Of a DNA stretch of 64,000 bases, positions 1 through 39,128 are shown one piece after another. The DNA is taken from NCBI GenBank assembly GCA_964403795.1, contig CAYOHP010000008.1, forward strand, positions 16,987 to 80,986. The letters are read 5' to 3'. Position 1 is the first letter of the stretch; each line of letters opens with the position of its first letter. Source of the DNA: an uncultured bacterium. GTDB taxonomy: Bacteria; Muiribacteriota; UBA6191; CAZXTJ01; CAYOHP01. Below the pieces are notes generated by a model. That model saw nothing but the letters and a program-made list of their open reading frames with translations. It had not been told where the DNA came from and made no database searches. A program made the translations under genes and the position numbers.

Positions 1-8
1 TAGCTACG

Positions 9-455
9 ATGAAGAAGCTGATCGTGCTGGCCCTGGTGGTGCTCGGACTGCTCGCCTACGCGGGCTCGGACCGCTACGGGGTCTCGGTGCTCGGGGTGGA
101 CCTGGCCTTCGATCCGATCGGGCGCATGCTCGACAGGAAGAGCAAGGGCTTCCTCTCCGACATCCAGTTCAAGGCCTTCGAGCGGGCCGCCCAGTACCAC
201 GCCCCCGAGGACCGCTCGAAGCGGGACATCCCCAAGCTGATCGAGGACAAGTTCGCGGTCAAGCCCGAGGCCCTCGACATCCGCCACTTCGAGGTGCTCC
301 GGGTCGACGTGTCGGAGGACGGTGCCCGGGCCAAGTCGCTCTGCCAGGCCAGCGTCAAGTTCCTGAACACCGACCAGCTGCGGGATTTCGAGCTGGTGCT
401 CTACTGGAAGAAGGTGGGCGAGGAGTGGTGGCTCGACCTCCAGTCGTCGCTCTGA
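9..455 (+). CDS. Hypothetical secreted protein. It has an N-terminal signal peptide and no recognisable domain.
   Basis: Complete ORF with ATG at 9. The hydrophobic N-terminus MKKLIVLALVVLGLLAYAG is typical of a Sec signal peptide. The rest is hydrophilic with plausible composition. Confidence 0.5.
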   Translation: MKKLIVLALVVLGLLAYAGSDRYGVSVLGVDLAFDPIGRMLDRKSKGFLSDIQFKAFERAAQYHAPEDRSKRDIPKLIEDKFAVKPEALDIRHFEVLRVDVSEDGARAKSLCQASVKFLNTDQLRDFELVLYWKKVGEEWWLDLQSSL

Positions 456-461
456 GGAACC

Positions 462-959
462 TCAGATCCCCAGCTTGCGCCGGAGGACGTGGCGCATGAC
501 GATCAGCCAGACGATCCACCCGAGCAGGTCCGTCGGGATCCTCATCGCGACGAGGAACGCGTAGGCGGTCGCGCCGAGCACCAGGATGGCCGCGGCCGGC
601 GCGCCCCAACGAGCGACCGGAGCCATGAGTTCGGTCCAGTGCCGGCGGTTGCCCGCCCGGGACGGGCGGACCGGCCGCCAGACATCGGGCGTGGCCCGGC
701 TCCGGGCCGGTCTCCGCCACGAAGTCCGGTCCCCGGCCAGGGCCCTCGCGACCTCCTGGAGCCGGGCGGGGTTCGGCGGCACCACCCGGTGCCACCGCTT
801 CCCGCACCCGTAGATGGCACAGCCGCCGGCATAGCTCCAGCAGTCCGTGTGGTGGGGGGTGGAGCAGGTCGGGCATGTGCGGGCCGAGGCCAGGGATCCC
901 TTGTCGCCGCAGACCTGGCAGTCGAAGCTGGGGGAATGGAGAGCGAGGGCACCGGGCAT
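462..959 (-). CDS. Cys-rich zinc-ribbon-like protein with a C-terminal transmembrane helix (hypothetical).
   Basis: The C-terminal 165 aa of the 406-aa ORF 462..1682 read MPGALALHSPSFDCQVCGDK...CPTCS...CAIYGCGKRW, with several CxxC-like pairs. They are followed by a TM segment (AAAILVLGATAYAFLVAM...WIVWLIVM). The ATG is at 957-959. The upstream part of the ORF is low-complexity GC-frame noise. Confidence 0.45.
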   Translation of the reverse strand: MPGALALHSPSFDCQVCGDKGSLASARTCPTCSTPHHTDCWSYAGGCAIYGCGKRWHRVVPPNPARLQEVARALAGDRTSWRRPARSRATPDVWRPVRPSRAGNRRHWTELMAPVARWGAPAAAILVLGATAYAFLVAMRIPTDLLGWIVWLIVMRHVLRRKLGI

Positions 960-1021
960 GGGTCCGGAGGCGGACGCAACCGGATTGCCGAAGGCTTCGG
1001 GAGCCGGTCCGGCGGGTCGTG

Positions 1022-1753
1022 TCAGGCGAGACCGGCTGCCAGCGTCTCGGCGACCAGCTCGCAGAGGTCCTTCCAGGCCTTCCCCCCGCGGCGGACGAAG
1101 CGCTGGTTGGACTCGATCTCGATCCCGAGGTACCGGGTGGCCGGGAAGCGCTTCCGAAGGTAGGTCGTGAACCCGTCCGAGATCCCCTTGAAGGGATAGT
1201 TGCGGCGGATCCGGAGGTCGGGGCGGGCACTTGCCATGGCCGCGGCCCAGGCATCGCAGAAGCGCTTCTCGCCCGGGCGCCGGGGGTCGTAGAGGAGCGA
1301 GACGTCGGCCTCCCGCACCACCCCCCGACGCACCGGGGTGAAGCTGTGGACCGCCAGGTGGACCACCGTGGCCCCGGCCTCGACCAGGCCTCGGATCTCG
1401 GCCTCGACCCGATCCCGGTGCGGCCGGTAGTGGCGCTCCACGATCCGTTGCCGCTCCGCCTCGGGCAGCTTCCAGGTCAGCTCCGAGAACACCGAAGGAT
1501 GATGGAGGCTCCGGTTCAGGTCGATGAGCAGCCGGCTCACGGTGGCCGGGAATAGCGGCGCCCCGAACCGGGCGGCCAGCTCCTCGGCCATCTCCAGGGC
1601 GCCCTGGTCGCGCCCCCGATGGCTCTCGAGCATGGCGCGCTTGCCGGCGAAGAGCGGCTTCCAAGGGTCGGGGATCCCGCACCCGCCGTGCTCGCAGGTG
1701 AGGACCAACGAGAACCGGCCGGTGGCCGGAGTCGAGGACCGTCGCCGGGTCAC
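1022..1753 (-). CDS. N-formylglutamate amidohydrolase family protein (FGase-like, PF05013-type).
   Basis: The translation FSLVLTCEHGGCGIPDPW...LIDLNRS...HSFTP...YLGIEI matches the FGase family pattern, including the TCEHGG motif. A GTG start at 1751-1753 overlaps the stop of the upstream LysM gene (GTGA). Confidence 0.6.
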   Translation of the reverse strand: MTRRRSSTPATGRFSLVLTCEHGGCGIPDPWKPLFAGKRAMLESHRGRDQGALEMAEELAARFGAPLFPATVSRLLIDLNRSLHHPSVFSELTWKLPEAERQRIVERHYRPHRDRVEAEIRGLVEAGATVVHLAVHSFTPVRRGVVREADVSLLYDPRRPGEKRFCDAWAAAMASARPDLRIRRNYPFKGISDGFTTYLRKRFPATRYLGIEIESNQRFVRRGGKAWKDLCELVAETLAAGLA

Positions 1754-2598
1754 GGGGAAGGTACCGCCAGGTCCATGCCGGGGCGCAGGCCGACCCCCGG
1801 CTTGGTGAGATCGGGATTGGCCTTCTGCAGGGCCTCCACGGTGACGCCGTACTGCTTGGCGAGACCGTACAGGCTCTCGCCCTGCTTCACCTTGTGGGTC
1901 CGTCCCGGAACCGGTGCCCCGGAAGCGCGGGCGATGGCCTCCCGGAGCTTCCGGTTCTCGGCGTCCACCGCCTCGAGCATGGCCTGGAGCCGGCCCTCGA
2001 AGGCGGTGCGATCCTTGTCCTGCTGCTGGCGGAGTCCCCCCAGCTCGGTGCGGATCGCGACCAGCGACTCGTTGAACCCGGTCGAGAGCGAGGTCATGTA
2101 GGCCCGGAGCTGGTTCAGATCGACGGCCAGCGCCTCCGCCTCCTGGCGATGGCGGGTGCGGTCCTGTTCCAGGGAGGCGGACAGGGCCTCGAGACGCTTC
2201 TCGACCCGGGACCGGAAGTCCTCGGCGGCCCGGTCGGACCCCTCCCGGTGGCGGGTCAGGCCGGTCTCGAGCTCGCTCCTCAGGAGCCCGATGCGTTCCT
2301 CCAGGTGGCGGGCATGCTCGACCCGCTCCTTCAGCGCCTCGGAGATCCGGTCCACCGCCTCGAGGGCGTCCTTGATCTTCTGGGCCGCCACCGCCTCCCG
2401 GCTCGCCAGCGCCAGTTCGAGGGCATCGAGGCGCTGCTTCTCCCGCGAATGGGCGAGGGCGGTCCCGGTGGCCGGTCCGGCGGCAGCCGCCAGGAGCAGG
2501 ACGAGGAGCCGGATTCCGGAGTGGCCTGGCGGGACGAACACCACCGGGACCGAGCCCCATGCCCCCCTCGAACCGGGTCGAGGCGGGGTCACCGGCAT
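1750..2598 (-). CDS. Secreted coiled-coil protein with a C-terminal LysM peptidoglycan-binding domain. It sits in the position of CpoB/YbgF downstream of pal.
   Basis: Signal-like N-terminus (IRLLVLLLAAAAGPATGTALA). The central part is a long heptad-like Ala/Glu/Arg/Leu region. The C-terminal LysM signature is HKVKQGESLYGLAKQYGVTVEALQKANPDL. The start overlaps the pal stop (TGATG). Confidence 0.7.
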   Translation of the reverse strand: MPVTPPRPGSRGAWGSVPVVFVPPGHSGIRLLVLLLAAAAGPATGTALAHSREKQRLDALELALASREAVAAQKIKDALEAVDRISEALKERVEHARHLEERIGLLRSELETGLTRHREGSDRAAEDFRSRVEKRLEALSASLEQDRTRHRQEAEALAVDLNQLRAYMTSLSTGFNESLVAIRTELGGLRQQQDKDRTAFEGRLQAMLEAVDAENRKLREAIARASGAPVPGRTHKVKQGESLYGLAKQYGVTVEALQKANPDLTKPGVGLRPGMDLAVPSP

Positions 2599-3254
2599 CA
2601 GGTGCCTCCCGGCGCGGTGCCGCTGGCGACCCGGAAGTGGGCCCTGCGATTCTGCTTCCAGACCTCTTCACCCCGGCCCGGGACCGCGGGTCGCTCCTCG
2701 CCGAAACTGACGGTGGCCAGCCGATCCGGAGCGATCCGCATGGCGGCCAGGAACTCGCGCACGGCCAGGGCCCGCTTCTCGCCCAGGACGAGGTTGTAGG
2801 CCGCGGTTCCCCGGGAATCGCAATGCCCCTCGATCACCAGCATGGCCCTGGGATTCGCCAGCATCCAGGCCCCGATCCCGGTGAGGACCTGGCGGGTCGC
2901 GGCCGAGAGCCCGTAGCTGTCGAACTCGAAGAACACGTCCCGGAGCACCGAGGCGTCACCGCCTCCCATGGGATCCAGGGACGGATCGTCGAGGGTAGGG
3001 TCCTCGCCGGAGGTCGACGCCGGCTCCCGGTAGCGCGAGTAATCGACCGGCGTCTCGCCGAGCGGGAGGTCGCCGCTCCGGATCCCGCCGCGTCCCTCGG
3101 AGCCCTCGGTGTCGAACACCGGAGCCGGGGTCGGGGAGGCCTCGGGAGGGCGCTGGCCCACCTGGGGGTCGGCGCGATCGCCGCGGCCTCCGCATCCGAG
3201 CGACACGATTCCGAGCAGGCACGCCAGGGCACGCGAGGTCGGGAACCTGTTCAT
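2598..3254 (-). CDS. pal: Peptidoglycan-associated lipoprotein Pal (OmpA-family C-terminal domain).
   Basis: Lipoprotein signal with lipobox (LGIVSLGCGG). The OmpA-like domain reads FEFDSYGLSAATRQVL...LVIEGHCDSRGTAAYNLVLGEKRALAVREFL...ERP. It lies immediately downstream of tolB. Confidence 0.9.
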   Translation of the reverse strand: MNRFPTSRALACLLGIVSLGCGGRGDRADPQVGQRPPEASPTPAPVFDTEGSEGRGGIRSGDLPLGETPVDYSRYREPASTSGEDPTLDDPSLDPMGGGDASVLRDVFFEFDSYGLSAATRQVLTGIGAWMLANPRAMLVIEGHCDSRGTAAYNLVLGEKRALAVREFLAAMRIAPDRLATVSFGEERPAVPGRGEEVWKQNRRAHFRVASGTAPGGT

Positions 3255-3283
3255 GGAGACCCTCTCCCGGCGGAAGCAGCCGA

Positions 3284-4573
3284 TCAATACGAGACCTTAC
3301 ACCAAGTCGGATCGCGCACGCCGGCGAGCGCCGGTAGGGGAATGGAGTAGCGATTGGAGGGTCGACGCGCATCCACGACCTCGAGCCGGGCCACGCCCTG
3401 TCGGGTCGAGGCGACGACCAGATGGCGATTGTCGGGAGCCCAGTCCAGCGCCTCTTCCCCCTCCGACCCGTCGGTCACCTCGAAGAAGGCGGAGTCCGCG
3501 AACCGGTGCACCCGGACCCCGAACCCGCGCGGCCCGCGGGCAGAGAAGGCGAGGAGGTCCCCGCGCGGCGACCAGGCCGGGTTGACGCACTCGTCGGAGG
3601 AGTCGAACCCGTGGGTCAGGCGCCGGGGAGGATCCCGGCCTTCGACCTCCAGCACGTACACCGCCGGAGAACCCGCCCTATCGCTCACGAACGCGATCCG
3701 CGACCCGTCGGGGGACCAGGTCGGGGAGAGATCGTTGGCCCGGTGCGAGGTCAGGCGCCGCCGCACCCTGCCGGTCAGGTCGAGGAGGTAGATCTCGGGA
3801 TTCCCCTCGTAGGAGAGCACCGCGGCCACCTGGGAGCCGTCGGGGGACATCGCCCCCAGGGTGTTCAGGCCGGCCCTGGCGCTCACGATCTGGTTCCGGC
3901 CGCTGACCGGGTCGAAGAGCATGAGCTGAGGGAAGTCCCGGGGATAGGCGGTGTAGAGGAGCCACCGGTGGTTCGGTGCGAACCGCGGGAAGAGGCACTC
4001 GAACGGCCCGGAGACGATGCGCTTCAGGTCGCTGCCGTCGGGGGCCGCGGTGTGGAGGGCGGGCTTGCCCTGGTGGTCGGCGACGAAGGCGAGCACCGTG
4101 CCCGCCAGCCCCGCTTCCCCGGTGAGTTCCCGCACCAGGTCGTCGGCGAAGCGATGGGCGGCCAGGGCCAGACGCCCACCCTCGAGCCGGTACTCGCGTC
4201 CGAACTGGCGGACACCATCGCTGGAATGCAGGTAGCCGCGCAGCAGGATGGCACCGGCATCGTCCCGGACCTCGGAACTCACCAGGAAGCTGGCGGCAGC
4301 CGGGACCTCGGAGGGAAGGACCCTGGCAGGATCGGCGGGAGGGGGACCCGCCAACGGGATCCGCTCGAACCAGTGCGACCGTTCGAGGTCGCCCGTGACC
4401 AGGGCGTCGAAGCGCACCGCCAGGGAGGGATCCCCGGCCGGGGGAGCGATCGCGAGCCGGATCGCCCGGTCGCCCGAGACCTCGATCACACCCCGCACCT
4501 CGGCCCCGCAGACGATCGGGAGGATCAGACCGAGGGCGATCGCCAGCCCCTGAACGCGGTCCTTACGCACCAT
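3284..4573 (-). CDS. tolB: Tol-Pal system periplasmic beta-propeller protein TolB.
   Basis: Signal peptide, TolB N-terminal domain, and repeated beta-propeller blades (SPDGSQVAAV, SPTWSPDGSRIAFVSDRAG, NPAWSPRGDLLAF). It is located between tolA and pal. Confidence 0.9.
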   Translation of the reverse strand: MVRKDRVQGLAIALGLILPIVCGAEVRGVIEVSGDRAIRLAIAPPAGDPSLAVRFDALVTGDLERSHWFERIPLAGPPPADPARVLPSEVPAAASFLVSSEVRDDAGAILLRGYLHSSDGVRQFGREYRLEGGRLALAAHRFADDLVRELTGEAGLAGTVLAFVADHQGKPALHTAAPDGSDLKRIVSGPFECLFPRFAPNHRWLLYTAYPRDFPQLMLFDPVSGRNQIVSARAGLNTLGAMSPDGSQVAAVLSYEGNPEIYLLDLTGRVRRRLTSHRANDLSPTWSPDGSRIAFVSDRAGSPAVYVLEVEGRDPPRRLTHGFDSSDECVNPAWSPRGDLLAFSARGPRGFGVRVHRFADSAFFEVTDGSEGEEALDWAPDNRHLVVASTRQGVARLEVVDARRPSNRYSIPLPALAGVRDPTWCKVSY

Positions 4574-4628
4574 GGTCCTCGCTTCCGGTCCAGGACGAGT
4601 CTCCCCGATGCCGGGCCCCGGTGCAAGG

Positions 4629-5738
4629 TCAGCGGACCACGAACACCAGGAAGAAGTCCTCGCCCGATTCGCCGCCGAGCTTCTCGGGGAGAGGACGGAA
4701 GGGAGCCGAGCGCTCCACTGCGGTGCGGGCCGAGCGGTCGAGACGATCGTCGCCCGAGGGCCGGGTCACCCGGAGATCCGAGAGCGAGCCGTCCCTCCCC
4801 AGCCGGAACCCCACCTCCACGGAGAGGTCGGCACCCAGAGCCGCTCGGGCCGGTCGTTGCCAGGCGGCGCCGAGCCGGGTGGTCAGCAGTTCCAGGTACC
4901 AGTGGACCGAAGGATCGAGCGCGCCCGCGACCCGCACCCCGAGTTCCTGGCCCGGGGCTTCCGGGCCGGGCCCGGTGGAGGTCGGTCTGGTGACGGCCGC
5001 AGGCGGGAGCGGGAGTGCCGCAGCGGTCGAAGTCTCGGCCGGAGGAGCGGCAGGGGTGGAGCTCCGGGTCGGAGCGGGCGGCGGGAGCGTCAGGGACCCG
5101 GGAGGCGGCGGCAGGGGGAGCAAGGGCTCGAGGGTGGGAGCCGGACGAGCCGGCGTCGAGGGCGTAGCGCCCGTCCAGCTCGGATCGCCCAGGAGTCGTT
5201 CCCGGAGCGAGGCACCGAAATCCGGGGGAGGCACCGGCTTGCGCACCGGGGCCGCTGCCGGGGTCGCCCGGGGCGCGGCCGCCGGCTTCGGTGTGGGCGC
5301 GGTCGGGCGGTTAGGGGCCTTGGAGGTCGGAACCGGGGCGGGCCGGGGGGCCTCCTTGGAAGCCGGGGGCGCAGGCGGGGCCGCCGGAGGGGCGGGAGGC
5401 GCGGCAGGCGGCACCGAAGCGGCCGGGGGCGGAGGTGCAGGCGGTGCGGGCGGAGCCGGAGGAGGTGCCGAAGGTGCGGCGGGAGGTGCCGGGGGAACCG
5501 GAGGGGCCACCGAAGGAACCGGCGGGGCGGGGCGGGAGACGGGAGGCGCGGGTCGGGCCGGGGTCACCGGCGGTCGAACGGTCGGAGCCGGCGGTGCGGG
5601 TCGCGGCAGCGCCCCGACGAAGCGGACCGGGATGGGCTTCGGCCTCTCGGTCACCGGGGGTGAGAGCCAGGTCGAGAGACCCATCGCCCCGAGGACCAGG
5701 GCATGGAGTCCCAGACTGAGGACCAGGCCTTCCCGCAA
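4629..5738 (-). CDS. tolA: TolA-like protein: N-terminal TM anchor, Pro/Ala-rich linker, and a TonB/TolA C-terminal domain.
   Basis: N-terminal TM (LVLSLGLHALVLGAMGL). The central linker is extremely Pro/Ala-rich. The C-terminal domain (VHWYLELLTTRLGAAWQRP...LSVEVGFRLGRDGSLSDLRVTRPSGDDRLDRSARTAVERSAPFRPLP) is TolA/TonB-like. It sits between tolR and tolB. Confidence 0.8.
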   Translation of the reverse strand: MREGLVLSLGLHALVLGAMGLSTWLSPPVTERPKPIPVRFVGALPRPAPPAPTVRPPVTPARPAPPVSRPAPPVPSVAPPVPPAPPAAPSAPPPAPPAPPAPPPPAASVPPAAPPAPPAAPPAPPASKEAPRPAPVPTSKAPNRPTAPTPKPAAAPRATPAAAPVRKPVPPPDFGASLRERLLGDPSWTGATPSTPARPAPTLEPLLPLPPPPGSLTLPPPAPTRSSTPAAPPAETSTAAALPLPPAAVTRPTSTGPGPEAPGQELGVRVAGALDPSVHWYLELLTTRLGAAWQRPARAALGADLSVEVGFRLGRDGSLSDLRVTRPSGDDRLDRSARTAVERSAPFRPLPEKLGGESGEDFFLVFVVR

Positions 5739-5740
5739 GG

Positions 5741-6154
5741 TCAGGGCTCCTTCGTGGCCAGCGCCAGGCGGGTCAGCCCGACCCGACGCAGCACGTCCAT
5801 CACCTCCACGACCCGGCCGTAGGCCAGGTCGCGGTCGGCGAGCAGGATCACGTCCGGTTCCGAGGCGCGACGGGCGATCAGTTCGCGGGCCCGCGCCTCG
5901 AGCTCGGAGAGGGTGGCGGGACGGCCCTCGAAGTGGACGTCCCCGGCCCGCGAGACCACCACGTTCACGGCGTCGTCGGTCCGGAGGTCCTTGGGGTCGG
6001 CGCCCGGGAGCTGGAGGGTGAAGCCCTGGTCGATCACGGGAGCGATCAGGATGAACACGATGAGCAACGTCATCATGACGTCGATCAGGTTGGTGAGGTT
6101 GATCTCGGCGATCGGGCGGCTGGGCCCGGACTCATCCCTGAGGAGCCTGCGCAT
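5741..6154 (-). CDS. tolR: Biopolymer transport protein TolR/ExbD.
   Basis: ExbD/TolR signature INLTNLIDVMMTLLIVFIL (single TM) with a periplasmic domain. It follows tolQ. Confidence 0.9.
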   Translation of the reverse strand: MRRLLRDESGPSRPIAEINLTNLIDVMMTLLIVFILIAPVIDQGFTLQLPGADPKDLRTDDAVNVVVSRAGDVHFEGRPATLSELEARARELIARRASEPDVILLADRDLAYGRVVEVMDVLRRVGLTRLALATKEP

Positions 6155-6172
6155 GGGGGACTCCCGCGCCGG

Positions 6173-6856
6173 TCAGGCGCGGCTCCCCTCGCCGGCCACG
6201 GCGGGTGCGCGGCTGGCCTCGACCGCACACAGGAAGTCCATGGCGAAGGACTTCATGCGGGTGACCGCCAGGCGGATCTGGCTCGAGACCAGGTTGTGGC
6301 CGACCAGGGCGGGAATGGCGACCGCCAGTCCCACGACCGTGGTCACCAACGCCACCGTGAGGCCGGGTGCCACCGCCTTCAGGCTGGTGGTCCCATGGAC
6401 GTTCATGTCGTGGAAGCAGAGCAGGATTCCCCAGACGGTCCCGAACAGCCCCAGCAGGGGGCTGACGGAAGCGATGGTCCCGAGCACCCAGAGACGCATC
6501 TCGAGTTCGAGGGCCTCGTGCTGGATCGCCATGGCCATGGAGTCCTCCACGTCCATCAGCTCCTTGGGACCGACCCGCCCCAAGGACTCGATCCGCCGGC
6601 AGCCTGCCGCATAGATCCGCCCCAGCGGACCCCGCGCCTCCTCGGAACCGGGCGGCCCCGGGTGCAGGGCCCGCGGCTCGGGAGTGGCGGCGAGCTGGGC
6701 CGAGAAGCGACGTCCGGCCACCGCGGCCCGGCGCAACCCGACGAGCTCGCCGAGCAGGATCGACCACGAGGCGATCGACATCGCCCCGAGGACCAGGAGC
6801 ACGACCTGCGAGAACGCGTCGCAGGCCAGGAAGGCCTTGGTGAGGATCGAGATCAT
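6173..6856 (-). CDS. tolQ: MotA/TolQ/ExbB proton-channel protein TolQ.
   Basis: Three-TM ExbB/TolQ architecture with the conserved C-terminal helices (VAPGLTVALVTTVVGLAVAIPALVGHN). It is the first gene of the tol-pal cluster. Confidence 0.9.
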   Translation of the reverse strand: MISILTKAFLACDAFSQVVLLVLGAMSIASWSILLGELVGLRRAAVAGRRFSAQLAATPEPRALHPGPPGSEEARGPLGRIYAAGCRRIESLGRVGPKELMDVEDSMAMAIQHEALELEMRLWVLGTIASVSPLLGLFGTVWGILLCFHDMNVHGTTSLKAVAPGLTVALVTTVVGLAVAIPALVGHNLVSSQIRLAVTRMKSFAMDFLCAVEASRAPAVAGEGSRA

Positions 6857-6875
6857 GGGTTCGGGGTGCCTCCCG

Positions 6876-8513
6876 TCAGAGCTGGAACATGGACGAGTAG
6901 TCGGCTCCGCCCCCGGCCATCGGGCCGCCGAGCGGGTCGTCGCCGAAGTCGAGGTCGCGGTCGCGGCCGCGGGTGGAAGCGGATCGCGCCGGGGCGCGGG
7001 TGGCGGCGGCCGGCGGGGATTCCGGGATCCCGGTGGACGCGACGGAGGGCGCGGGCGACGCGACCGGTGCCGTCCGGGCGGAGGGCGGAGGCATCGGCGG
7101 GAGCGGGCCGTCCGGCCCCGGTGCCGGGGTGCGGGCCGCGGCCGGCGGGGGTGGCGGCAGCGAGCCCGACGCCGGCCCCGGGGCGCCGGTGGCGGCGGCG
7201 ACCGAGGTGCCGAGGGCCGCGGCCCCCGAGGCCGCGGCGGATCCCGCTGCCCTGGTCGCGACCGCCGCCAGCTCGGCCGGGACGGTCAAGGGAGGCGCCG
7301 GCAGGGAGAGGCCGGGGACCGAGGCGGGAACCGGGTCCCACCGATCGTTCTTCCACCCGCCGCGCCGGGTCGGCCGGGAGGCGGCCGCCACCGGAGGGGA
7401 CGGAGGCGGCGGCGCGACCGGGACCCCCGAGGCGATCGGGGCGGCTTCGGGCCGACCCGAGGTCGGGGTCGTCGGGAGCGGCAGCGCCAGCGCGGGAGGA
7501 TCCTCGTCCCGGTGGTCGGGAGCCGAGGGGCTCTCCGGTCCGGGTGCGGGGCCGTACTGGCCCTTGGCGAGGTCGAGGAGGGTACCCACCGCCTCGCCCA
7601 CATCCTTGGTCTGGCTGGCGCCGCGCAGGCGCTTCCTCAGGTCGGCGGCCAGGCGCCGGGCGTCGGCGGGAGGCTGGGTGCGTCCCGGCTCGCGGCGGAG
7701 CCCGTCGGCACTGGTGGCAAGGGACTCGCCTTCCCGGAGCACACGCGTGTCCTGGCCGTACCGGGCGTCGACCCTGCCGGAGAACACCTCGATCTCCTCG
7801 GCGCCGCCGGGTACCGCCCGGATCCGCACCACCGCCGACCGCATCGCGAACTCCGCCCGGGGGGTCAGGATCTCGAAGCGCTGGCCTTCACGGCGCCAGT
7901 CGACGAGGACCTCGCCTGCCTCGAGGACCAGGGCGTCCCGCTGCAACTGGACCCGGGTCCCGGGCCCCACCGCGACCGCGGCCCGGGTGTCGAGCTCCAG
8001 CACGGTCCGGGCCGACTCCCCGGTCCTCAGCCAGTCATGGAACCAGAGGGCGTCGCTCCGACCCACCCGGGATGGCCCGCGAGCCCCGGAACGGACCACC
8101 TCGCCGGGGGCGTCGGACGAGAGCTTCGCCGCCACTCCCAGGTGGCGGGTGGCAGACGGAGCCCGGGTCCCGGCGTCGAGGGGTACCGCGAACTGGTACT
8201 CCCGGAAGGCGCCCGAGGCGACCCGCCGGGAAACCCCGGTCCGGGTGATCGCGTACTCGGAGCCCGGGAGCAGGCTGACCGCGCCCGAGTCGAACAGGGC
8301 CAGGTTCGCCCGGGTGCCTTCGGCCACCTGCAGGCGATCCCCGAGTTCGATCCGGGCGAAGTCGAGGACGTCCCGGGCGGTCCGACCCAGCGACGCCACC
8401 GACACCTTGCCCTCGAGGACCCGGAGGCTCCCGGCCATGGGAGCGGCCAGCAGACCGGCTCCCGGGAGCAGCGCCGGGAGGATCGCGAGCAGGGGGACGC
8501 GGCGGGGGTTCAT
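6876..8513 (-). CDS. Secreted FecR-domain protein with a long Pro/Ala-rich C-terminal region.
   Basis: Signal peptide (LLAILPALLPGAGLLAAP). The N-terminal ~250 aa have the FecR-like beta-rich pattern (GKVSV...GDRLQVAEGTRANLALFDSGAVSLLPGSEYAI). The ATG at 8511-8513 overlaps the stop of the upstream CHASE2 gene (ATGA). Confidence 0.6.
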   Translation of the reverse strand: MNPRRVPLLAILPALLPGAGLLAAPMAGSLRVLEGKVSVASLGRTARDVLDFARIELGDRLQVAEGTRANLALFDSGAVSLLPGSEYAITRTGVSRRVASGAFREYQFAVPLDAGTRAPSATRHLGVAAKLSSDAPGEVVRSGARGPSRVGRSDALWFHDWLRTGESARTVLELDTRAAVAVGPGTRVQLQRDALVLEAGEVLVDWRREGQRFEILTPRAEFAMRSAVVRIRAVPGGAEEIEVFSGRVDARYGQDTRVLREGESLATSADGLRREPGRTQPPADARRLAADLRKRLRGASQTKDVGEAVGTLLDLAKGQYGPAPGPESPSAPDHRDEDPPALALPLPTTPTSGRPEAAPIASGVPVAPPPPSPPVAAASRPTRRGGWKNDRWDPVPASVPGLSLPAPPLTVPAELAAVATRAAGSAAASGAAALGTSVAAATGAPGPASGSLPPPPPAAARTPAPGPDGPLPPMPPPSARTAPVASPAPSVASTGIPESPPAAATRAPARSASTRGRDRDLDFGDDPLGGPMAGGGADYSSMFQL

Positions 8514-9661
8514 GCAGCCAGCCTCTCGGTTCCACGGTCCATGGCGGCCCTCCCGGCGACGCCACCGAGCCGGGTGGGCGGGGAGAAGGACGCTCCCAGG
8601 CGCACCGGATCGGTCGCCGACGCCAGGACCGGCGAGGTCATCCCGGCCCGCCGCAGGGCGGCGACCAGGGGACCGAGGAAGGCGCCGAGCAGCAGGGCCA
8701 GGGTCGGACCCCAGGGATCGATCAGCAGATCGGCCCAGACCAGCAGGAGCAGGCTGGCCAGCGAAGGACTCGCGACCCCCGCCAGGAGGACCGGGAGGGC
8801 CGCCCCGCCGAGACCGGGAAGCAGGACTCCCAGCAGGGCGAAGCCGGCTTCGATCCCCAGGACCAGGCCGGGCAGGGGGGGAAGCTCCAGCACCCGTCGC
8901 CCGGCGAGGAGCTGGGCCGTGGCCTGGGCGTGGAGGGACCGGGAGCCGCCCGGCTCGACCAGCACGATCCGGCCCGCCAGGGAGGAATCGGGACGCTCCA
9001 GGCGACGGCCCAGGCGGGCCCTGGGATCCCCGGAGGCGAGTTCCTCGTCGGAGAGGCCGAAGGCCCGGGCCTCCGAGGGCGGGATCGCCTCGGGGTCGTC
9101 GAGCCGGGCCTCCAGGCGCTGGTACTGGAGAGCCTCGCCCAGGACCTCGACGAAGGGACGCACCTCGATCGCCCCGAGGGCATCGACCGAGAAATCGAGC
9201 GGGGACCGGGGCCAGCCGCGGACCGGTCCGCCCATGGCCTCCACGGCTCGACGAGCCGGCGAGGCGCGGTCGAAGGGATAGCGGACCAGGGCTTCGCCCT
9301 CCCCGGGAGCCAGGGTCTCCGAGGGCTCGGCCACCACCACCGAGGCCGCTCCGGCGGCCTCCAGGTAGTCGACCACCGAACCCATCAGTCCGGGAGGCCA
9401 GGCATCCCTGGGTCCCAGTTGATCCTCAGTGGTCAGATCGGACCCGATCTCCACGACCAGCAGCCGGTCGAGCCCGCCGGCGGGGCCATGCCACCAGGAG
9501 CGGGCATCGAAGGCTACCCGGCCCGCGCCCTGGGCGAGGAAGCCGGGTGCCGGGACCCGCTGGGCAGCGGCCACCGCGGCCGCCACGGCCACGCCCAGGG
9601 CCAGAGCCCCGGGGCGGCCCGGTTCGGACCGGATTCGATCACGGGAAGGGTTTCTCGTCAC
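8510..9661 (-). CDS. CHASE2 sensor-domain membrane protein with no cytoplasmic output domain.
   Basis: N-terminal TM is followed by CHASE2 hallmark stretches (DRLLVVEIGSDLTTEDQLGPRDAWPPGLMGSVVDYLEAAGAASVVV). The C-terminus carries three TM helices. Proposed GTG start at 9659-9661. The 5' part of the 488-aa ORF looks like GC-frame noise. Confidence 0.55.
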   Translation of the reverse strand: MTRNPSRDRIRSEPGRPGALALGVAVAAAVAAAQRVPAPGFLAQGAGRVAFDARSWWHGPAGGLDRLLVVEIGSDLTTEDQLGPRDAWPPGLMGSVVDYLEAAGAASVVVAEPSETLAPGEGEALVRYPFDRASPARRAVEAMGGPVRGWPRSPLDFSVDALGAIEVRPFVEVLGEALQYQRLEARLDDPEAIPPSEARAFGLSDEELASGDPRARLGRRLERPDSSLAGRIVLVEPGGSRSLHAQATAQLLAGRRVLELPPLPGLVLGIEAGFALLGVLLPGLGGAALPVLLAGVASPSLASLLLLVWADLLIDPWGPTLALLLGAFLGPLVAALRRAGMTSPVLASATDPVRLGASFSPPTRLGGVAGRAAMDRGTERLAA

Positions 9662-9780: not shown

Positions 9781-11028
9781 TCAGTCGGTCCCTCCCAGGG
9801 TCGACCGGGACCCCTGGCTCTCGAGGAAGCGCACCACGTCGTCGAAGTGGCGGGACTCGATCCCGCCGGTGCGCACCCGGTGCTGGTCCCGGAACCCTCC
9901 GCCGTCGAAGATCCACAGCTCCCGCTGGCGGAGGCCCCAGGACGAGACCACCTGGAGGTGGCGGTAGTCGCCCCACCAGACCAGGGGCACGTACTTCATC
10001 ATCGCCATGCGCAGCGCGGTGTGGGAGCGGTCCGAGAAGCGGCCGCCCGAAGGCGATTCGGTGGCCAGGATGGCGGCGTTCAGGTTGGCCTTGGCCCTCA
10101 GCATGGCGAGCGCGAACCGGACCGAGGTGGGCTTGACCAGGGTGTCGAAGATCGAGGTCGTGGTGTAGCGGTACAGGATCCAGCCTGTGAGGCTACGGCG
10201 CTCCTCGTCGGGGTTGGCGGGCTTGATGCGCTCGCGCTCCAGGATCTGCCGGGCCTCGGCGGCGTCGGCCAGGGCGGCGTCGAGACCCGCCAGGTAGCGG
10301 TCGGAGAGCGGCTCGGCGACCGAGACCGACAGGTGGGTGCCGCGTCGGACACCGGACGAGGTGGGAAGGCCGACAGGGCGCGCCTCCCATCTCGAGGTGA
10401 GGAGCGGGCGCGACTGCGAGTCCCTCCAATGGGGGCCGTTGTAGAACATGCTGCGGGCCCCGGCCCAGCCGTGGAGCTGGTCGTGGAGGGTGGCGAGCCG
10501 CACCGATTCGAGTCGGGCCTCGAGGGCCCAGGCGGGCTCGTCGCGGGCCTCCATGGTGGCGAGGGTGCGGTGGGCGGCCTGGAGCTTGCCGTTGGCCGCC
10601 AGGATCGCGGCCGAGAGGTCGTCCGCCAGCCGGACCGCCCGGTTGTAGCGGGCCAGGTCGGAGAAGCCGAGCTTGTTCCGGCCCGAGTCCGACTGGTACT
10701 CGGCGGCCCGGTAGATCTCGGCGTAGAGATCCATGGCGGAGACCAGCTGCCGGTCGGCTTCGGCGAGGTCGGCGACGACTCCGTCCCAGTGGGGGGACAC
10801 GGGATGGGCCCCGGCGTGCAGGGGGAAGCCGCCTCGCCCGTCGCCGGTCCCGGTTCCGGTGCCTGCGGCTCCTGCCGCGCCCGGGGGCAGGGCCACAGGA
10901 GTCCGGCCATCGCCGGTTCCGGAGGCCAGGTCTTCGAAGCCGAGCTGGGCGGGACACGGGGGGGGGAGGGAGAGCAGGAGTGCCAACAGGAGCGAGGAAG
11001 AAGGGATCGAGGGTCGCATCGTTTCCAT
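9781..11028 (-). CDS. Hypothetical secreted protein (signal peptide, no recognised domain). It is the first gene of the CHASE2/FecR/tol-pal gene string.
   Basis: METMRPSIPSSSLLLALLLSLPPPCPAQ is a signal peptide. It is followed by ~390 aa of non-repetitive sequence with good coding-like composition. Confidence 0.5.
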   Translation of the reverse strand: METMRPSIPSSSLLLALLLSLPPPCPAQLGFEDLASGTGDGRTPVALPPGAAGAAGTGTGTGDGRGGFPLHAGAHPVSPHWDGVVADLAEADRQLVSAMDLYAEIYRAAEYQSDSGRNKLGFSDLARYNRAVRLADDLSAAILAANGKLQAAHRTLATMEARDEPAWALEARLESVRLATLHDQLHGWAGARSMFYNGPHWRDSQSRPLLTSRWEARPVGLPTSSGVRRGTHLSVSVAEPLSDRYLAGLDAALADAAEARQILERERIKPANPDEERRSLTGWILYRYTTTSIFDTLVKPTSVRFALAMLRAKANLNAAILATESPSGGRFSDRSHTALRMAMMKYVPLVWWGDYRHLQVVSSWGLRQRELWIFDGGGFRDQHRVRTGGIESRHFDDVVRFLESQGSRSTLGGTD

Positions 11029-12808: not shown

Positions 12809-14490
12809 CTACAGGCCGTGCCAGGGAGGGGGGCGACCCAGGGGGGAGAACTCCGGCCGGCGGGCCAGGTAGGTGGGGCGGTGGGCCAGGAAGGCCTTGT
12901 GCTCGGCCTTCACCGCAGCCGAGACCTTGAAGCCCCGGGGGGCCTTGTCGAGGGCGGTCCAGAGCAGCGGCATGATCCGGTGGCGGTGCCACTCCATCGG
13001 ATCCCGGTCCTGGGACCCGGGACGGGGATCAGAGGTCGCGGCCTGGTGGACGTATTCGACGAAGCGGTCGATCACCTCGTGGGCGATCACCGCCCGCTCG
13101 CCCCGGGGCAGCACCCTCCAGGCTTCCCAGAAGAGGACCCCCGGCTCCAGGAAATCGGTCTTGATCCTTCCCCCGCTCGCCTCCAGGGTCGCTGCCCGCG
13201 CCTCCCGCCGCAGCCGTCCGAGCAGCGCCGCGCCTCCATACCGGCGGACCGTCTCCTCCCCGTCCATGAGCAGGAGGTCCTGGGCCAGGGTCGGCACCAC
13301 CGTCACATGCGGGTTCGCCATCAGCCAGCGGGCGTGGTTGGTGTAGAGGAGGAGCGACTCCACGAAATCCCGGGCGCTCGACTTGCACACCTGGCCTCGA
13401 TACTCCCAGGTCGCCTCCCGGTAGACCATGGCGAGGTCCAGCGGTGCGTCGTACTCGGGCACCCGCGCCTCGTCGAGGACCTTGTCGCTCTTCACGTGGC
13501 ACTCGCCGGCGATCTGCAGCCGGTTCAGGTTCCCCTCGCCGTACCGCCCGATCTGGTCCGGCCGGTACCCGGTCTGGCGCACATGGGCCGACTGCCAGTA
13601 CCCGCAATGGATGACCTGGGCGCGCTTGCGGACCGCCCGCCCGAAGGCGAAGTTGGTCTGGAACACCTCGCGAGGCGAGCCCACCGGCCCGGTGCGCGGG
13701 TCGACCAGACCCGGAGGCGGATTGGCAGCCGGTCCCCAGCCCCGGTCCCAGATGGCGTTCTCGGACGTCAGCGTCCCCACCGCGGAAGGATGGAAGCCGC
13801 CTTCCCAGTACGCCTCGATCAGCCGACGGAAGGCGTCGTAGCGCTTGCGGGTGGCCCGGAACGGCCGGTCGTCGGGATTGGGGAAGTCCATCACGAAGCA
13901 CGAGAGCTCGGGATGGTTCAGGCGGGTGGCGATGTCGTCGACCAGGAGGCTCCCCACCATGAAGGTCTTGGCCGAGATGCTGAACTGGCAACCGCCGTGG
14001 AGCAGGGTGCCGACGAGTCCCAGGCTGGCGGGCACGTCCCAGATGTAGGCCTGCAGGAAGTCCACGAACTCGTCCAGGTGGAACCACTCGAGCGGGACCG
14101 GCTTGATCGAGAACTCGATGGTCTCGGGGTCGGTCGTGACCCTGACCTTGAGATCCCGGTGACCCGGCTCCCGGAAGCGGAACCTGAGGCCCTGGCGCCG
14201 GAATCCCCAGGGGTCCTTCTCCTTGCGCAGGTGCACGCTGCCGAACAGGCTGGTCGGGGCTCCCGCGGCCAGGTCGGCCTGGTAGCGTTCGACGATCCTC
14301 CGGGCGATCCGCTCCTGGAGCTCGAGCATGTAGGGATGCTCGAAGTAGTCGACCTCGCCGCCCTCCCGCGCCGCCAGGTGCTCCCAGAGACGCACCGTGC
14401 GCTTGGACTGGAAGGTCGGCTCCATGCCGATCCAGGCCTGGTCGAACCCCGTGGTGGTGGGTTCGTGGAAGGTCGACAGCACCGCCACCA
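12809..14490 (-). CDS. Large conserved-looking hypothetical protein (~560 aa, cytoplasmic). Function unknown.
   Basis: Long ORF with non-repetitive, balanced amino-acid composition, unlike the GC-frame noise ORFs. No family motif that I can name. Start proposed at ATG 14488-14490 (MVAVLSTFHEP). The upstream 97 codons are Lys/Arg/Gly low-complexity. Confidence 0.5.
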
Positions 14491-14762
14491 TGCGGCTGTC
14501 GTCGGCCCTGGGCCCCGCGTCGCCGTCCCGGACCGGGTGGGTCGGGGCGGCTTCCTCGAGCCTGCGCTTCCTTTCCTTCTTCCGCTTGCCGGGTCGTCCC
14601 CGCTGCTTGCCCACTCGTTTCCCTCGGACCTGGCGTGCCGGCGCCGGCGACGCTCCCGCCCCCATCGTGACCCATGGACCGGCGATCCCCAACCCCGGTC
14701 CCACCTCGAACCTTGACGGAGGCCTCGGGGGGGTGTCGAATCCGGCCCGAACGGAGGCCCCG

Positions 14763-15543: not shown

Positions 15544-16425
15544 ATGAAGATGCGAACCCGCAGCGTCCGGATCGAGGGCTTCGACATCGCCATCGGGAGC
15601 GATCATCCGTTGTGCGTGATCTCCGGGCCCGACGTGCTCGAGGACCTCGACTCGGCGCTGGTGATCGCCCGCAACGTGAAGTCGCTCTGCGACCGGCACG
15701 GGTTCGGCTACGTCTTCAAGGCCAGCTACGACAAGGGCAACCGGGCCAAGTCGGGGAGCTACCGCGGTCCGATGCTCGAGAAGGGTCTCGCCCTCCTCTC
15801 CCGGGTCCGGGACGAGGTGGGATGCCCGGTGCTCACCGACGTCCACTCGGTCGAAGAGGCGGCGGTGGCCGGCGAGGTCGTCGACATCGTGCAGGTTCCC
15901 GCGTTCCTCTGCATGCAGACGGAAGTCGTGCACGCGGCGGCCCGCACCGGCAGGGTCGTGAACCTGAAGAAGGGGCAGTTCCTCGACCCCTGGGCGGCCC
16001 AGTCGCTCGCCGCCAAGGCCATGGAGACCGGCAACGACAAGATCCTGCTGACCGAGCGGGGCACCACCTTCGGCTACCAGAACCTGGTCTCCGACATCCG
16101 GTGCCTGCCGATCATGCGCAGCACCGGCTGCCCGGTGGTCTACGACCCGACCCACATCATCCGGCGGCCCGGCCTCCCGGCCAGCGCTCCCGAGGGCGGC
16201 CAGCCCGAATTCGTCCCCCATCTGACCCGGGCCGCGGTGGCGGCCGGGGTCGACGCCTTGTTCCTGGAGACCCATCCCGAGCCGCGTCTCGCCGGCTGCG
16301 ACCAGTCGAGCATGCTGCGGCTCTCCTACATGCCCGAGATCCTGGACCAGGCGGCCCGGCTCCACGCCCTGGTGCGGGAGTGGGACCTGGGGATCCGCGG
16401 CCGGGACCAGTACGGCTTCGTCTGA
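15544..16425 (+). CDS. kdsA: 3-deoxy-8-phosphooctulonate (Kdo8P) synthase, paralog 1.
   Basis: GYVFKASYDKGNRAKSGSYRGP (KxNR motif), QVPAFLCMQTE and VVYDPTHI match KdsA along its full length. Confidence 0.85.
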   Translation: MKMRTRSVRIEGFDIAIGSDHPLCVISGPDVLEDLDSALVIARNVKSLCDRHGFGYVFKASYDKGNRAKSGSYRGPMLEKGLALLSRVRDEVGCPVLTDVHSVEEAAVAGEVVDIVQVPAFLCMQTEVVHAAARTGRVVNLKKGQFLDPWAAQSLAAKAMETGNDKILLTERGTTFGYQNLVSDIRCLPIMRSTGCPVVYDPTHIIRRPGLPASAPEGGQPEFVPHLTRAAVAAGVDALFLETHPEPRLAGCDQSSMLRLSYMPEILDQAARLHALVREWDLGIRGRDQYGFV

Positions 16426-16438
16426 TGGGGAACGAGCC

Positions 16439-17020
16439 ATGATCGCGGCGCCTCTCGAACCGGTCCACTCGGGTGCCGCCGGGCGCCGCCACCCCGAGTT
16501 CGAAGCCCGGGCCCGGAGGGTCCGGGTCCTGCTCTTCGACGTCGACGGCGTGTTCACCGACGGGGGAGTGATCCTCGGGTCCGGGGGCTTCGAGTCCAAG
16601 CGCTTCCACATCCAGGACGGCATGGGGATCACCCTGGCGCACCAGGCCGGACTCGAGACCGGGGTTCTGACCGGCAGGGTCTCCGAGGCGGTGGAACGCC
16701 GGGCCCGCGAGCTGAAGATGCGCCACGTGGTCCAGGGTGCCGGGGACAAGGCACCGGCGTTCGCCGCCTTGCTGGCACGGGAAGGACTGGCCGCCGAGGA
16801 AGTCGCGTTCATGGGCGACGATCTCCAGGACCTTCCCGTCATGATCCGGGTCGGTCTCGCCATGGCCCCGGCCAACGGCCGGGTCGAGGTGCGGGACCGG
16901 AGCCACATGGTCACCCACGCCATCGGTGGTTCCGGGGCGGTACGGGAGGCGATCGAAGCCATCCTGGTGGCCCGCGGGAGCTGGGATGGACTGGTCGCGT
17001 CCTACCTGGAGGCGGGATGA
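16439..17020 (+). CDS. kdsC: Kdo 8-phosphate phosphatase (HAD superfamily, KdsC).
   Basis: LLFDVDGVFTDGGV (HAD motif I), GMGITL, and FMGDDLQDLPVM (motif III). It sits between the two kdsA genes. Confidence 0.8.
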   Translation: MIAAPLEPVHSGAAGRRHPEFEARARRVRVLLFDVDGVFTDGGVILGSGGFESKRFHIQDGMGITLAHQAGLETGVLTGRVSEAVERRARELKMRHVVQGAGDKAPAFAALLAREGLAAEEVAFMGDDLQDLPVMIRVGLAMAPANGRVEVRDRSHMVTHAIGGSGAVREAIEAILVARGSWDGLVASYLEAG

Positions 17021-17868
17021 CCCCGGTACGAACGGTTCGGATCGGATCGGTGGCGATCGGACCCGATCAACCCCTCGGACTGATCCTCGGCCCCTGCGTG
17101 GTCGAGGATCCGGAGCGCACCCTGGCGATCGCCCGCCGGGCCCGGGACATCGCCCGGGAAGCCGGTCTGCCCTTCGTCTTCAAGGCCAGTTACGACAAGG
17201 CGAACCGCACCAGCCTGGCGTCGTACCGAGGGCCCGGGGTCGACGAGGCGCTCGCCACCCTGGCCTCGATCAAGCGGGAACTCGGCGTCCCGCTGCTCAC
17301 CGACGTCCACCGGGAGGACGAGATCGAGCGGGCGGCCGCGGTCGCCGACTGCCTCCAGATCCCGGCGTTCCTGTGTCGCCAGACCGACTTCGTGGTGGCG
17401 GTGGCCAGGGCGGGGCGGGCCGTCAACGTGAAGAAGGGGCAGTTCCTCTCCCCCTGGGACGTCGGCCCCATCGCCGAGAAGGTGCTCTCGACCGGCAACC
17501 CGAATCTGCTGCTCACCGAGCGGGGAGCCAGCTTCGGCTACCAGAACCTGGTGGTCGACATGCGCTCGCTGCCCGCCATGCGGGCGGTCGGCTTCCCGGT
17601 GGTCTTCGACGCCACCCACTCGGTGCAGCTCCCCGGTGCCCACGGCCACGAGACCGGCGGGATGCGTCCCTACATCCCCTACCTGGCCAGGGCCGCGGTC
17701 GCCGCCGGCTGCGACGCGGTGTTCATGGAGGTCCACGACGACCCCGAACAAGGGCTCTCGGACCGGGCCACCATGTTCCCGCTCGCCGACCTGGAGCGGC
17801 TGGTCGGCGACCTGGCGGCGCTCGACCGGATGTCCCGGGAGCGCGGCTTCCGCGGCGCCATCGGGTAG
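17017..17868 (+). CDS. kdsA: Kdo8P synthase, paralog 2. It carries the Cys-type (metal-dependent) residue at the N26/C11-equivalent position.
   Basis: LILGPCVVEDPE..., LPFVFKASYDKANRTSLASYRGPG, IPAFLCRQTD and VVFDATHSVQ. The ATG overlaps the kdsC stop (ATGA). Confidence 0.85.
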   Translation: MTPVRTVRIGSVAIGPDQPLGLILGPCVVEDPERTLAIARRARDIAREAGLPFVFKASYDKANRTSLASYRGPGVDEALATLASIKRELGVPLLTDVHREDEIERAAAVADCLQIPAFLCRQTDFVVAVARAGRAVNVKKGQFLSPWDVGPIAEKVLSTGNPNLLLTERGASFGYQNLVVDMRSLPAMRAVGFPVVFDATHSVQLPGAHGHETGGMRPYIPYLARAAVAAGCDAVFMEVHDDPEQGLSDRATMFPLADLERLVGDLAALDRMSRERGFRGAIG

Positions 17869-20277: not shown

Positions 20278-20440
20278 GGGAGTCGGGGTCCGGGGTCCGG
20301 GGTCCGGGCATGGTACCCGACTTGCCGCCCCTGCCCTTCCCGGGCTAGCCTCCTCCGCTCGCTCCGCGGCGCCGACCGGCGACCTCGATCACAACACAAA
20401 GACGGAGCGACGAGCCGAGTATCGAGCAGAGGAGTCCGTC

Positions 20441-31875: not shown

Positions 31876-31889
31876 CGGGAGGAGGCTGC

Positions 31890-38926: not shown

Positions 38927-39128
38927 GGCCGCCGTTTCCCCGGGCCTTTCGTCGGTCCGGTATCCAGGCGGCCTCAACGTCCTGTCCGCTCGCCGGCCAT
39001 GCCCCGCACTCCGCAACCGGGCCCGGACGGTGCCGCACATGTGTCGACCCGGCAGGCCGGGAAGCGTCCTCATCCCGCGAGCGCGACCTCGCGTGCTCCC
39101 ATGGGGAGGACGCACGAGGAGGCGCGGC

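Follow-up and report, generated by a model that had tools for sequence, protein, structure and literature searches.

A LysM-terminated protein with a predicted long helix, encoded directly after pal in the tol-pal gene string of an uncultured Muiribacteriota bacterium

The tol-pal locus

Few envelope machines of double-membraned bacteria are as conserved as the Tol-Pal system; what is known of its communication with the cell wall, via CpoB and NlpD, comes mainly from E. coli. In this study, we analysed a 64,000-nucleotide stretch of DNA (64 kb, hereafter the window) from an uncultured bacterium of the Muiribacteriota (assembly GCA_964403795.1, contig CAYOHP010000008.1), in which tol-pal is followed by two further genes. 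The first, here named LysMcc, encodes an exported protein with a long predicted helix and a C-terminal LysM domain. The second encodes a member of the N-formylglutamate amidohydrolase (FGase) family. The G+C content of the window is ~72%, with local values of up to 80% at 5001-5500. The genes tolQ-tolR-tolA-tolB-pal-LysMcc-FGase form a minus-strand string that runs without interruption from 6856 to 1022:

6173-6856, minus strand: tolQ, MotA/ExbB/TolQ proton channel (Pfam MotA_ExbB, E=2.8e-30; top NCBIfam model TIGR02796 tolQ, E=2.7e-41, under the equivalog cutoff)
5741-6154, minus strand: tolR, ExbD/TolR protein (Pfam ExbD, E=1.7e-22; top NCBIfam model TIGR02801 tolR)
4629-5738, minus strand: tolA-type force transducer, Pro/Ala-rich in the middle, with a TonB_C-type domain at the C-terminus (Pfam TonB_2, E=6.9e-11; NCBIfam tolA_full, E=3.4e-7)
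3284-4573, minus strand: tolB, beta-propeller protein (NCBIfam TIGR02800 TolB, E=3e-67, full length; Pfam PD40 match)
2598-3254, minus strand: pal, lipoprotein with an ~85-aa low-complexity linker and, at the C-terminus, an OmpA-like domain for peptidoglycan binding (Pfam OmpA, E=5e-18, residues 108-203; top NCBIfam model TIGR02802 Pal, E=2e-31)
2605-2610, minus strand: Shine-Dalgarno sequence GGGAGG within the 3' end of pal, six nt upstream of the LysMcc ATG (read from the sequence)
1750-2598, minus strand: LysMcc, exported protein of 282 aa with a long predicted helix and a LysM domain at its C-terminus (open reading frame; family from HMMER scan; synteny with pal in 7/7 relatives)
1022-1753, minus strand: FGase-family amidohydrolase, Atu2144-like subfamily, 243 aa, GTG start (Pfam FGase, PF05013, E=2e-23)

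The five Tol-Pal genes are found in canonical order on one strand (2598-6856), and Tol-specific NCBIfam models were their top matches. All of these scores were under the equivalog cutoffs, as expected for a distant lineage. Based on the top-scoring models and the gene order, tolQRAB-pal appears to be a divergent but ordinary tol-pal core; the assignment of tolA is supported by its placement between tolR and tolB. The start codon of pal is ATG, and its signal sequence, ending in IVSLGC (MNRFPTSRALACLLGIVSLGC), fits a lipoprotein signal, with the lipobox judged by eye. The Pal linker comprises ~85 residues between lipobox and OmpA domain (total length of Pal proteins in the family, 213-222 aa), and the centre of TolA is Pro/Ala-rich and not helical. 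Both traits may be related to the periplasmic dimensions of the lineage.

The ATG of LysMcc (2598-2596) and the TGA of pal (2600-2598) have base 2598 in common (TGATG). Similarly, the GTG of the FGase-like gene (1753-1751) overlaps the TGA of LysMcc (1752-1750), giving GTGA. All three genes and both overlaps had been described in a first-pass annotation of this DNA, and were found exactly where it had placed them, on the minus strand. Start/stop overlaps by themselves are common in high-GC operons. The adjacency of pal and LysMcc is not due to chance, because it was found again in 7 of 7 independent relatives (see below).

Architecture of LysMcc

The following parts of LysMcc were delimited:

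2452-2598, minus strand: residues 1-49, Sec-type signal peptide, then the conserved mature N-terminus HSREKQRLDALE (hydropathy profile)
1924-2457, minus strand: residues 48-225, single uninterrupted amphipathic helix, predicted (AlphaFold2; hydrophobic period)
1759-1896, minus strand: residues 235-280, one LysM domain (Pfam PF01476, E=3e-11, 43.5 bits vs a cutoff of 20.9)

In the hydropathy profile, the signal peptide shows a charged n-region, a LLVLLLAAAA core, and a c-region TALA before H50. A lipobox is absent from LysMcc. Alignment of the family showed that A49, H50, and R56 are invariant and that R52, E53, and E61 are at least 90% conserved, right behind the AxA-like site. The consensus of the mature tip is H-T-R-E-R-x-R-I-D-A-L-E, represented in the window protein by HSREKQRLDALE.

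A monomer model was obtained with AlphaFold2 run on a 10-sequence family alignment. Residues 48-225 (178 residues) were predicted as one helix, with block values of the predicted local distance difference test (pLDDT) of 81-98, and above 90 from residue 61. At ~0.15 nm per residue, the helix would make a rod of ~26 nm if straight, a length taken from the model. The hydrophobic period was 3.56-3.62 (about 3.58) over ~175 residues in nine of the ten family members. This period lies between heptad and hendecad spacing and is compatible with a weakly supercoiled coiled coil or with a long amphipathic helix; presumably, the predicted helix is a coiled-coil rod. C-terminal to the helix, a short linker leads in the model to a LysM fold of the beta-alpha-alpha-beta type, which superposes on the LysM domains of YkuD, MltD, and CBM50 with a root-mean-square deviation of 0.9-2 Å. 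The LysM domain was the sole match of the LysMcc model in a Foldseek search against PDB, and the LysMcc profile also matched LysM chains in PDB. Matches of the profile to apolipoprotein A-I were obtained as well; homology was rejected, and the matches are read as compositional or amphipathic-helix similarity. Domains known to bind Tol proteins were not detected in LysMcc with Pfam or NCBIfam. In the first-pass annotation, the product of the gene after pal had been described as a secreted coiled-coil protein ending in LysM. This description is supported by the signal peptide and by the LysM domain, whose profile score is well over the cutoff, and the predicted long helix is compatible with a coiled coil.

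The LysMcc family and its link to pal

With HMMER, 1.84 billion representative proteins were scanned exhaustively, which revealed nine further full-length relatives (P0122, P0140, P0141, P0150, P0151, P0152, P0159, P0174, and P0213), giving at least ten clusters with LysMcc. The relatives are 250-302 aa long, share the same architecture, and were each recovered as a single full-length match (E 3e-50 to 1e-19). In the match list they were interspersed with multi-LysM proteins matching through LysM alone. The family alignment starts with a signal peptide with an AxA-like end, followed by the invariant A-H and a conserved R-E-(R/K)-x-R-(I/L)-x-x-(L/F)-E motif. A middle of variable length then leads to a conserved L-L-x-x-V-x-x-E-N-x-K-(L/V)-R segment and the LysM domain. 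Beyond LysM, no Pfam or NCBIfam model for the family was found.

Other searches added no members. A word-indexed protein search returned the query only when run with LysMcc alone, and the query, P0152, and one LysM-only match when run with the family alignment; the family was missed because coiled-coil composition defeats the word index. A metagenome scan with the family alignment gave 80 loci, which were LysM-only matches seeded on the LysM motif, and re-scoring with a hidden Markov model (HMM) gave no new member. The two matches of greater length, L094 (coiled-coil/LysM/M23-like) and L086 (TPR/LysM/YkuD-like), were rejected as unrelated by sequence inspection. A TolB-based scan of representative genome contigs found relatives of 27-34% identity, mostly Gammaproteobacteria with an ordinary cpoB; LysMcc was present in none of these.

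The contigs of seven relatives (all except P0151 and P0174) were read, and a BLASTP search with the window proteins served to assign the neighbouring genes. Immediately upstream of LysMcc, on the same strand, a Pal orthologue is encoded in each of the seven independent loci, with 40-57% identity. The distances from the pal stop to the LysMcc start were as follows:

L100: 13 nt
L101 (= L102): 23 nt
L103: 16 nt
L104 (= L105): 1-nt overlap, the same as in the window
L106: 3 nt
L107: 12 nt
L108: 11 nt

Wherever the contig of a relative reaches far enough, pal is preceded by a gene for a TolB orthologue (41-61% identity), and L101 carries a complete tolQRAB-pal-LysMcc string. The loci span 49% to 74% G+C, and the pal-LysMcc adjacency has therefore outlasted considerable divergence. 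Based on this synteny, LysMcc belongs to the tol-pal operon of these organisms as a conserved member. A published description of a LysM coiled-coil gene after pal was not found in a full-text literature search.

The locus L108 has tolB-pal-LysMcc without preceding tolQRA. A gene of the AstE/AspA type (succinylglutamate desuccinylase/aspartoacylase; 4931-5863, minus strand) is located divergently upstream. The presence of this zinc-hydrolase-superfamily gene near tol-pal is probably a coincidence.

Comparison with CpoB and other TPR proteins

In the model operon, the slot after pal is held by cpoB. It had been noted that the gene in this slot of the window is not a canonical cpoB, and our searches agree. 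No match of LysMcc to tetratricopeptide repeats (TPR) or to tol_pal_ybgF (TIGR02795) was detected at E<=0.01, and no Pfam match to TolA_bind_tri (PF16331) was found. Profile-profile comparison (hhalign) of the LysMcc family with a CpoB alignment gave a probability of 12.6% over 32 columns; the CpoB alignment consisted of six sequences, the genes after pal in gammaproteobacterial loci from the TolB scan. Since TPR and TolA_bind_tri matches are lacking and the profile-profile probability is low, LysMcc is not a CpoB homologue. The coiled coil of CpoB is also much shorter than the ~178-residue helix predicted for LysMcc.

A Pfam scan of every predicted gene detected no TPR or CpoB-like gene in the 64-kb window. 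HMMs of CpoB and of the TPR protein described below had no match among the six-frame open reading frames of at least 50 codons in the window. The closest relative, L101, likewise has no TPR/CpoB gene within 10 kb either side of LysMcc. In three lower-GC, more distant relatives, a conserved secreted TPR protein of ~277 aa is encoded one or two genes past LysMcc, followed by a conserved small membrane protein:

L100:2676-3509, L107:1247-1968, and L108:9905-10741: TPR protein, follows LysMcc in the same gene string
L100:3561-3935, L107:1937-2368, and L108:10757-11584: conserved small membrane protein after the TPR protein

The TPR protein carries a signal peptide; its N-terminal domain is unique (motifs RRAxRW, GGFRVEQRAEIV, and SRRELANRWAD), and two to three TPR motifs are found in its C-terminal part. 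It was not accepted as CpoB: the hhalign probability of 68% over 72 columns is read as generic TPR similarity only. Its match to tol_pal_ybgF (E about 1e-3) is far under the cutoff. This protein may be a further lineage-specific Tol-Pal accessory. It had been suggested that LysM was swapped for TPR at this locus. The window, without any CpoB or TPR gene, agrees with that part of the proposal, but a TPR gene stands alongside LysMcc in L100, L107, and L108, where LysMcc has been added and replaces nothing. Because some members of the family have both, a simple swap does not hold in general. It is possible that the TPR gene was lost in the high-GC branch.

The FGase-like gene

The FGase-like protein matches PF05013 with 84 bits (cutoff 28.9) over profile positions 2-216 of 219. 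The alignable part of the homologues begins near residue 14, and the GTG start is therefore preferred to a 203-aa call on the Logan contig. More than 2,800 database proteins match it, the best with 51-60% identity, and strongly conserved motifs of the homologues are CEHGG, HRGxD, DLNRS, HSFTP, RRNYP, and GIExExNQ. Orthology to HutG was rejected (TIGR02017, 20.3 bits vs an equivalog cutoff of 278.75), and no histidine-utilisation (hut) genes were found in the window. Within the family shared by Atu2144 and HutG, the protein is closest to Atu2144, in a subfamily without an established substrate. The nearest solved structure is that of the uncharacterised Atu2144 (PDB 2ODF; phmmer E=2.5e-21, Foldseek template modelling (TM) score 0.79, 30% identity); the Ralstonia FGase 2Q7S came second, with weak resemblance. 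Carboxypeptidases, the poly-gamma-glutamate hydrolase YndL, and Amidase_3 cell-wall amidases are remote superfamily neighbours (TM about 0.4-0.45).

No signal peptide or hydrophobic N-terminal segment was detected in the FGase-like protein, the first beta-strand of its fold starts at residue 14, and its homologues all have short, hydrophilic N-termini. On these grounds the enzyme is predicted to be cytoplasmic. A possible Tat signal (TRRRSS) in the N-terminus was rejected, as no hydrophobic core follows it and the catalytic-core strand begins at residue 14. No Pfam Amidase match was obtained.

The FGase gene was not found downstream of LysMcc in any of the five relatives with readable downstream sequence. 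The contexts of four homologues were examined, none of them near tol-pal: three lie beside a transglutaminase-core gene, and one follows RimK-like and GCS2 ligase genes. In L109:4375-6053 (also L110-L112), the transglutaminase-core (PF01841) gene overlaps the FGase start by 4 nt. In L003:6001-8379 and L004:6001-8324, an unannotated 240-aa gene lies between the FGase-like homologue and the transglutaminase-core gene. The homologues in these pairs are 51-56% identical to the window enzyme, which suggests a conserved cytoplasmic two-enzyme module. In L005:3161-9014, the homologue is located after the RimK-like and GCS2 (glutamate-cysteine-ligase-type) genes; immediately downstream on the opposite strand are genes with DinB_2/FGE-sulfatase and Methyltransf_33 domains. 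We take these domain pairs to be those of the ergothioneine genes egtB and egtD. That the L005 enzyme removes a gamma-glutamyl group in such a pathway is pure speculation.

The first-pass annotation had assigned the FGase fold to the zinc amidase/peptidase superfamily and suggested that the protein could be a cell-wall amidase. The superfamily assignment is correct, but the similarity is remote, with TM of about 0.45 to Amidase_3 enzymes, and likewise to 4RN7 and 7RAG, vs 0.79 to Atu2144. The amidase role is not supported: the protein has no signal peptide, the gene is absent after LysMcc in 5 of 5 relatives with readable downstream sequence, and the homologues are found in unrelated cytoplasmic contexts. 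The GTGA overlap makes co-expression with LysMcc likely in the window. The simplest reading is that the FGase-like gene is an unrelated, lineage-specific cytoplasmic passenger at the end of the operon.

Other genes in the window

A Prok-RING_1 zinc-finger protein of 165 aa with a C-terminal membrane segment (462-959, minus strand; Pfam PF14446, E=8e-7) is encoded 62 nt past the FGase gene. It is possibly the last gene of the transcription unit; BLASTP of the neighbours detected no such gene beside LysMcc in any relative locus. Directly upstream of tolQ, a FecR-domain protein of 545 aa (6876-8513, minus strand) has a very Pro/Ala-rich C-terminal half. In L101, an AMP-binding enzyme takes the place of this gene. 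A second FecR-domain protein (24741-25907, minus strand) overlaps the end of a gene encoding a 980-aa CHASE2-adenylate/guanylate cyclase (25904-28846). A promoter and terminator scan of 1-9000 gave nothing beyond the shuffled expectation, and no Rfam families or tRNA were found in the 64-kb window.

Genes for lipopolysaccharide biosynthesis were detected at 15544-17868, 28883-33050, and 41756-45922, all on the plus strand. The set includes two DAHP_synth_1 (KdsA-like) genes flanking a HAD phosphatase, a lipid A acyltransferase, a Kdo transferase fused to a Kdo/WaaP-type kinase domain, GT4 and GT2 glycosyltransferases, and three GT9 heptosyltransferase-like genes. These genes confirm that the organism is double-membraned. 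Sizeable open reading frames without a Pfam match at E<=0.001 but with a strong codon-position G+C signal were observed at 9781-10800, 12809-14614, and 20389-21357 (minus strand), and at 38547-39779 and 46435-47880 (plus strand). All five are candidate lineage-specific proteins.

Possible role of LysMcc

We consider it probable that LysMcc is a previously undescribed accessory of the Tol-Pal system and that the cytoplasmic enzyme encoded by the FGase-like gene is unrelated to it, having entered the operon in this lineage alone. LysMcc would be translated together with Pal and exported by Sec. Its long helix could mediate oligomerisation into a dimeric or trimeric rod. Such an oligomer would present two or three LysM domains and bind peptidoglycan glycan strands multivalently, binding by a single LysM being weak. 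The conserved tip, ~26 nm away, may contact a Tol-Pal component (the TolA C-terminal domain, TolB, or Pal) or a membrane, so that the rod would couple the action of Tol-Pal to the cell wall in the manner of a scaffold or spacer. Several points weigh against this proposal. The rod model is a monomer prediction with a predicted TM score (pTM) of 0.32. Conserved synteny speaks for co-regulation with pal, not for a physical contact. All members of this small family come from metagenomes, and its pal context covers seven relatives, leaving out P0151 and P0174. In the window, the FGase start overlaps the LysMcc stop, which leaves room for a lineage-specific functional link. A more specific version, in which LysMcc is a true extra Tol-Pal component of a sparsely sampled lineage, is rather unlikely in our view. 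The ~26 nm oligomeric rod, with its tip on TolA, TolB, or Pal and LysM on glycan, would then couple the proton-motive-force-driven Tol cycle to the wall in a way unlike that of model organisms, and would replace CpoB functionally in genomes like this one.

LysMcc might instead be a functional replacement of CpoB, i.e., a periplasmic coiled-coil oligomer that would report Tol-Pal status to the peptidoglycan machinery, with LysM replacing TPR as the output. CpoB (YbgF), the last gene product of the E. coli tol-pal operon, resembles LysMcc in being encoded directly after pal, in its export to the periplasm by a signal peptide, in its gross plan (N-terminal coiled coil, presumed for LysMcc, and C-terminal binding domain), and in being an accessory, not a core component. 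LysMcc holds the operon slot of cpoB, with TPR/CpoB genes absent from the window and from the surroundings of LysMcc in L101. A survey from 2025 reports that cpoB adjoins tol-pal in ~70% of the non-proteobacterial species with the system, where it is often a lipoprotein, and that ~30% have no adjacent cpoB (PMC12204202). However, the profile comparison with the six CpoB sequences gave little similarity, and LysMcc has neither TPR nor TolA_bind_tri. LysM binds peptidoglycan glycan and not proteins such as TolA or PBP1B-LpoB, so the output would differ, and three relatives (L100, L107, and L108) have a separate TPR-domain gene in the same string. We regard the replacement as improbable. It is likewise improbable that LysMcc is a general peptidoglycan-attached spacer rod without a specific Tol-Pal partner, placed after pal through co-regulation of envelope genes. 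By analogy with Braun's lipoprotein (Lpp), another periplasmic helical rod with one end on peptidoglycan, a spacer role is plausible. The modelled long rigid helix with one peptidoglycan-binding end, the lack of a known Tol-binding domain, and the unusually long Pal linkers, a hint that the distance from outer membrane to wall is large or variable, are consistent with it. Lpp is a 58-residue lipoprotein linked covalently to peptidoglycan, whereas LysMcc is not lipidated, is ~three times longer, is predicted to bind non-covalently via LysM, and has no sequence relationship to Lpp. The adjacency to pal is tight and conserved in all seven loci across the whole G+C range, with TolB identity down to 41%, which is more than loose co-regulation usually keeps, and the conserved N-terminal tip suggests a specific partner.

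A further comparison is with the septal hydrolase activators NlpD, DipM, and EnvC, which are also periplasmic, carry LysM (NlpD, DipM) or a coiled coil (EnvC), and have a role at the wall. The activity of NlpD, a LysM protein of E. coli, has been functionally tied to Tol-Pal (PMC5533458). In contrast to these proteins, LysMcc lacks the defining LytM/M23 domain and has no lipobox; the NCBIfam DipM model matches it in the LysM part only, with 16.9 bits vs a cutoff of 740. LysMcc and the FGase-like enzyme could still be thought of as a cell-wall hydrolase module like NlpD and AmiC, or the enzyme could recycle murein peptides in the cytoplasm. The co-expression implied by GTGA, the dependence of NlpD on Tol-Pal (PMC5533458), and the fold superfamily in common with Amidase_3 enzymes, carboxypeptidases, and YndL would fit such a module. 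We nevertheless judge it highly improbable: the enzyme has no signal peptide and follows LysMcc in none of the five relatives, its likeness to cell-wall amidases is remote, and its homologues of 51-60% identity, which occur in thousands, adjoin transglutaminase-like or GCS2/RimK genes and not envelope genes.

Significance

The negative result for the FGase-like protein guards against its mis-annotation as a cell-wall amidase. It also illustrates that start/stop overlaps in a high-GC genome are no proof of common function. For work on periplasmic spacing and on the tethering of the outer membrane, LysMcc is a simple protein that lends itself to testing. If LysMcc is truly a second kind of pal-linked accessory, consisting of a long rod with a glycan-binding end, the coupling of Tol-Pal to the cell wall would have been solved in more than one way.

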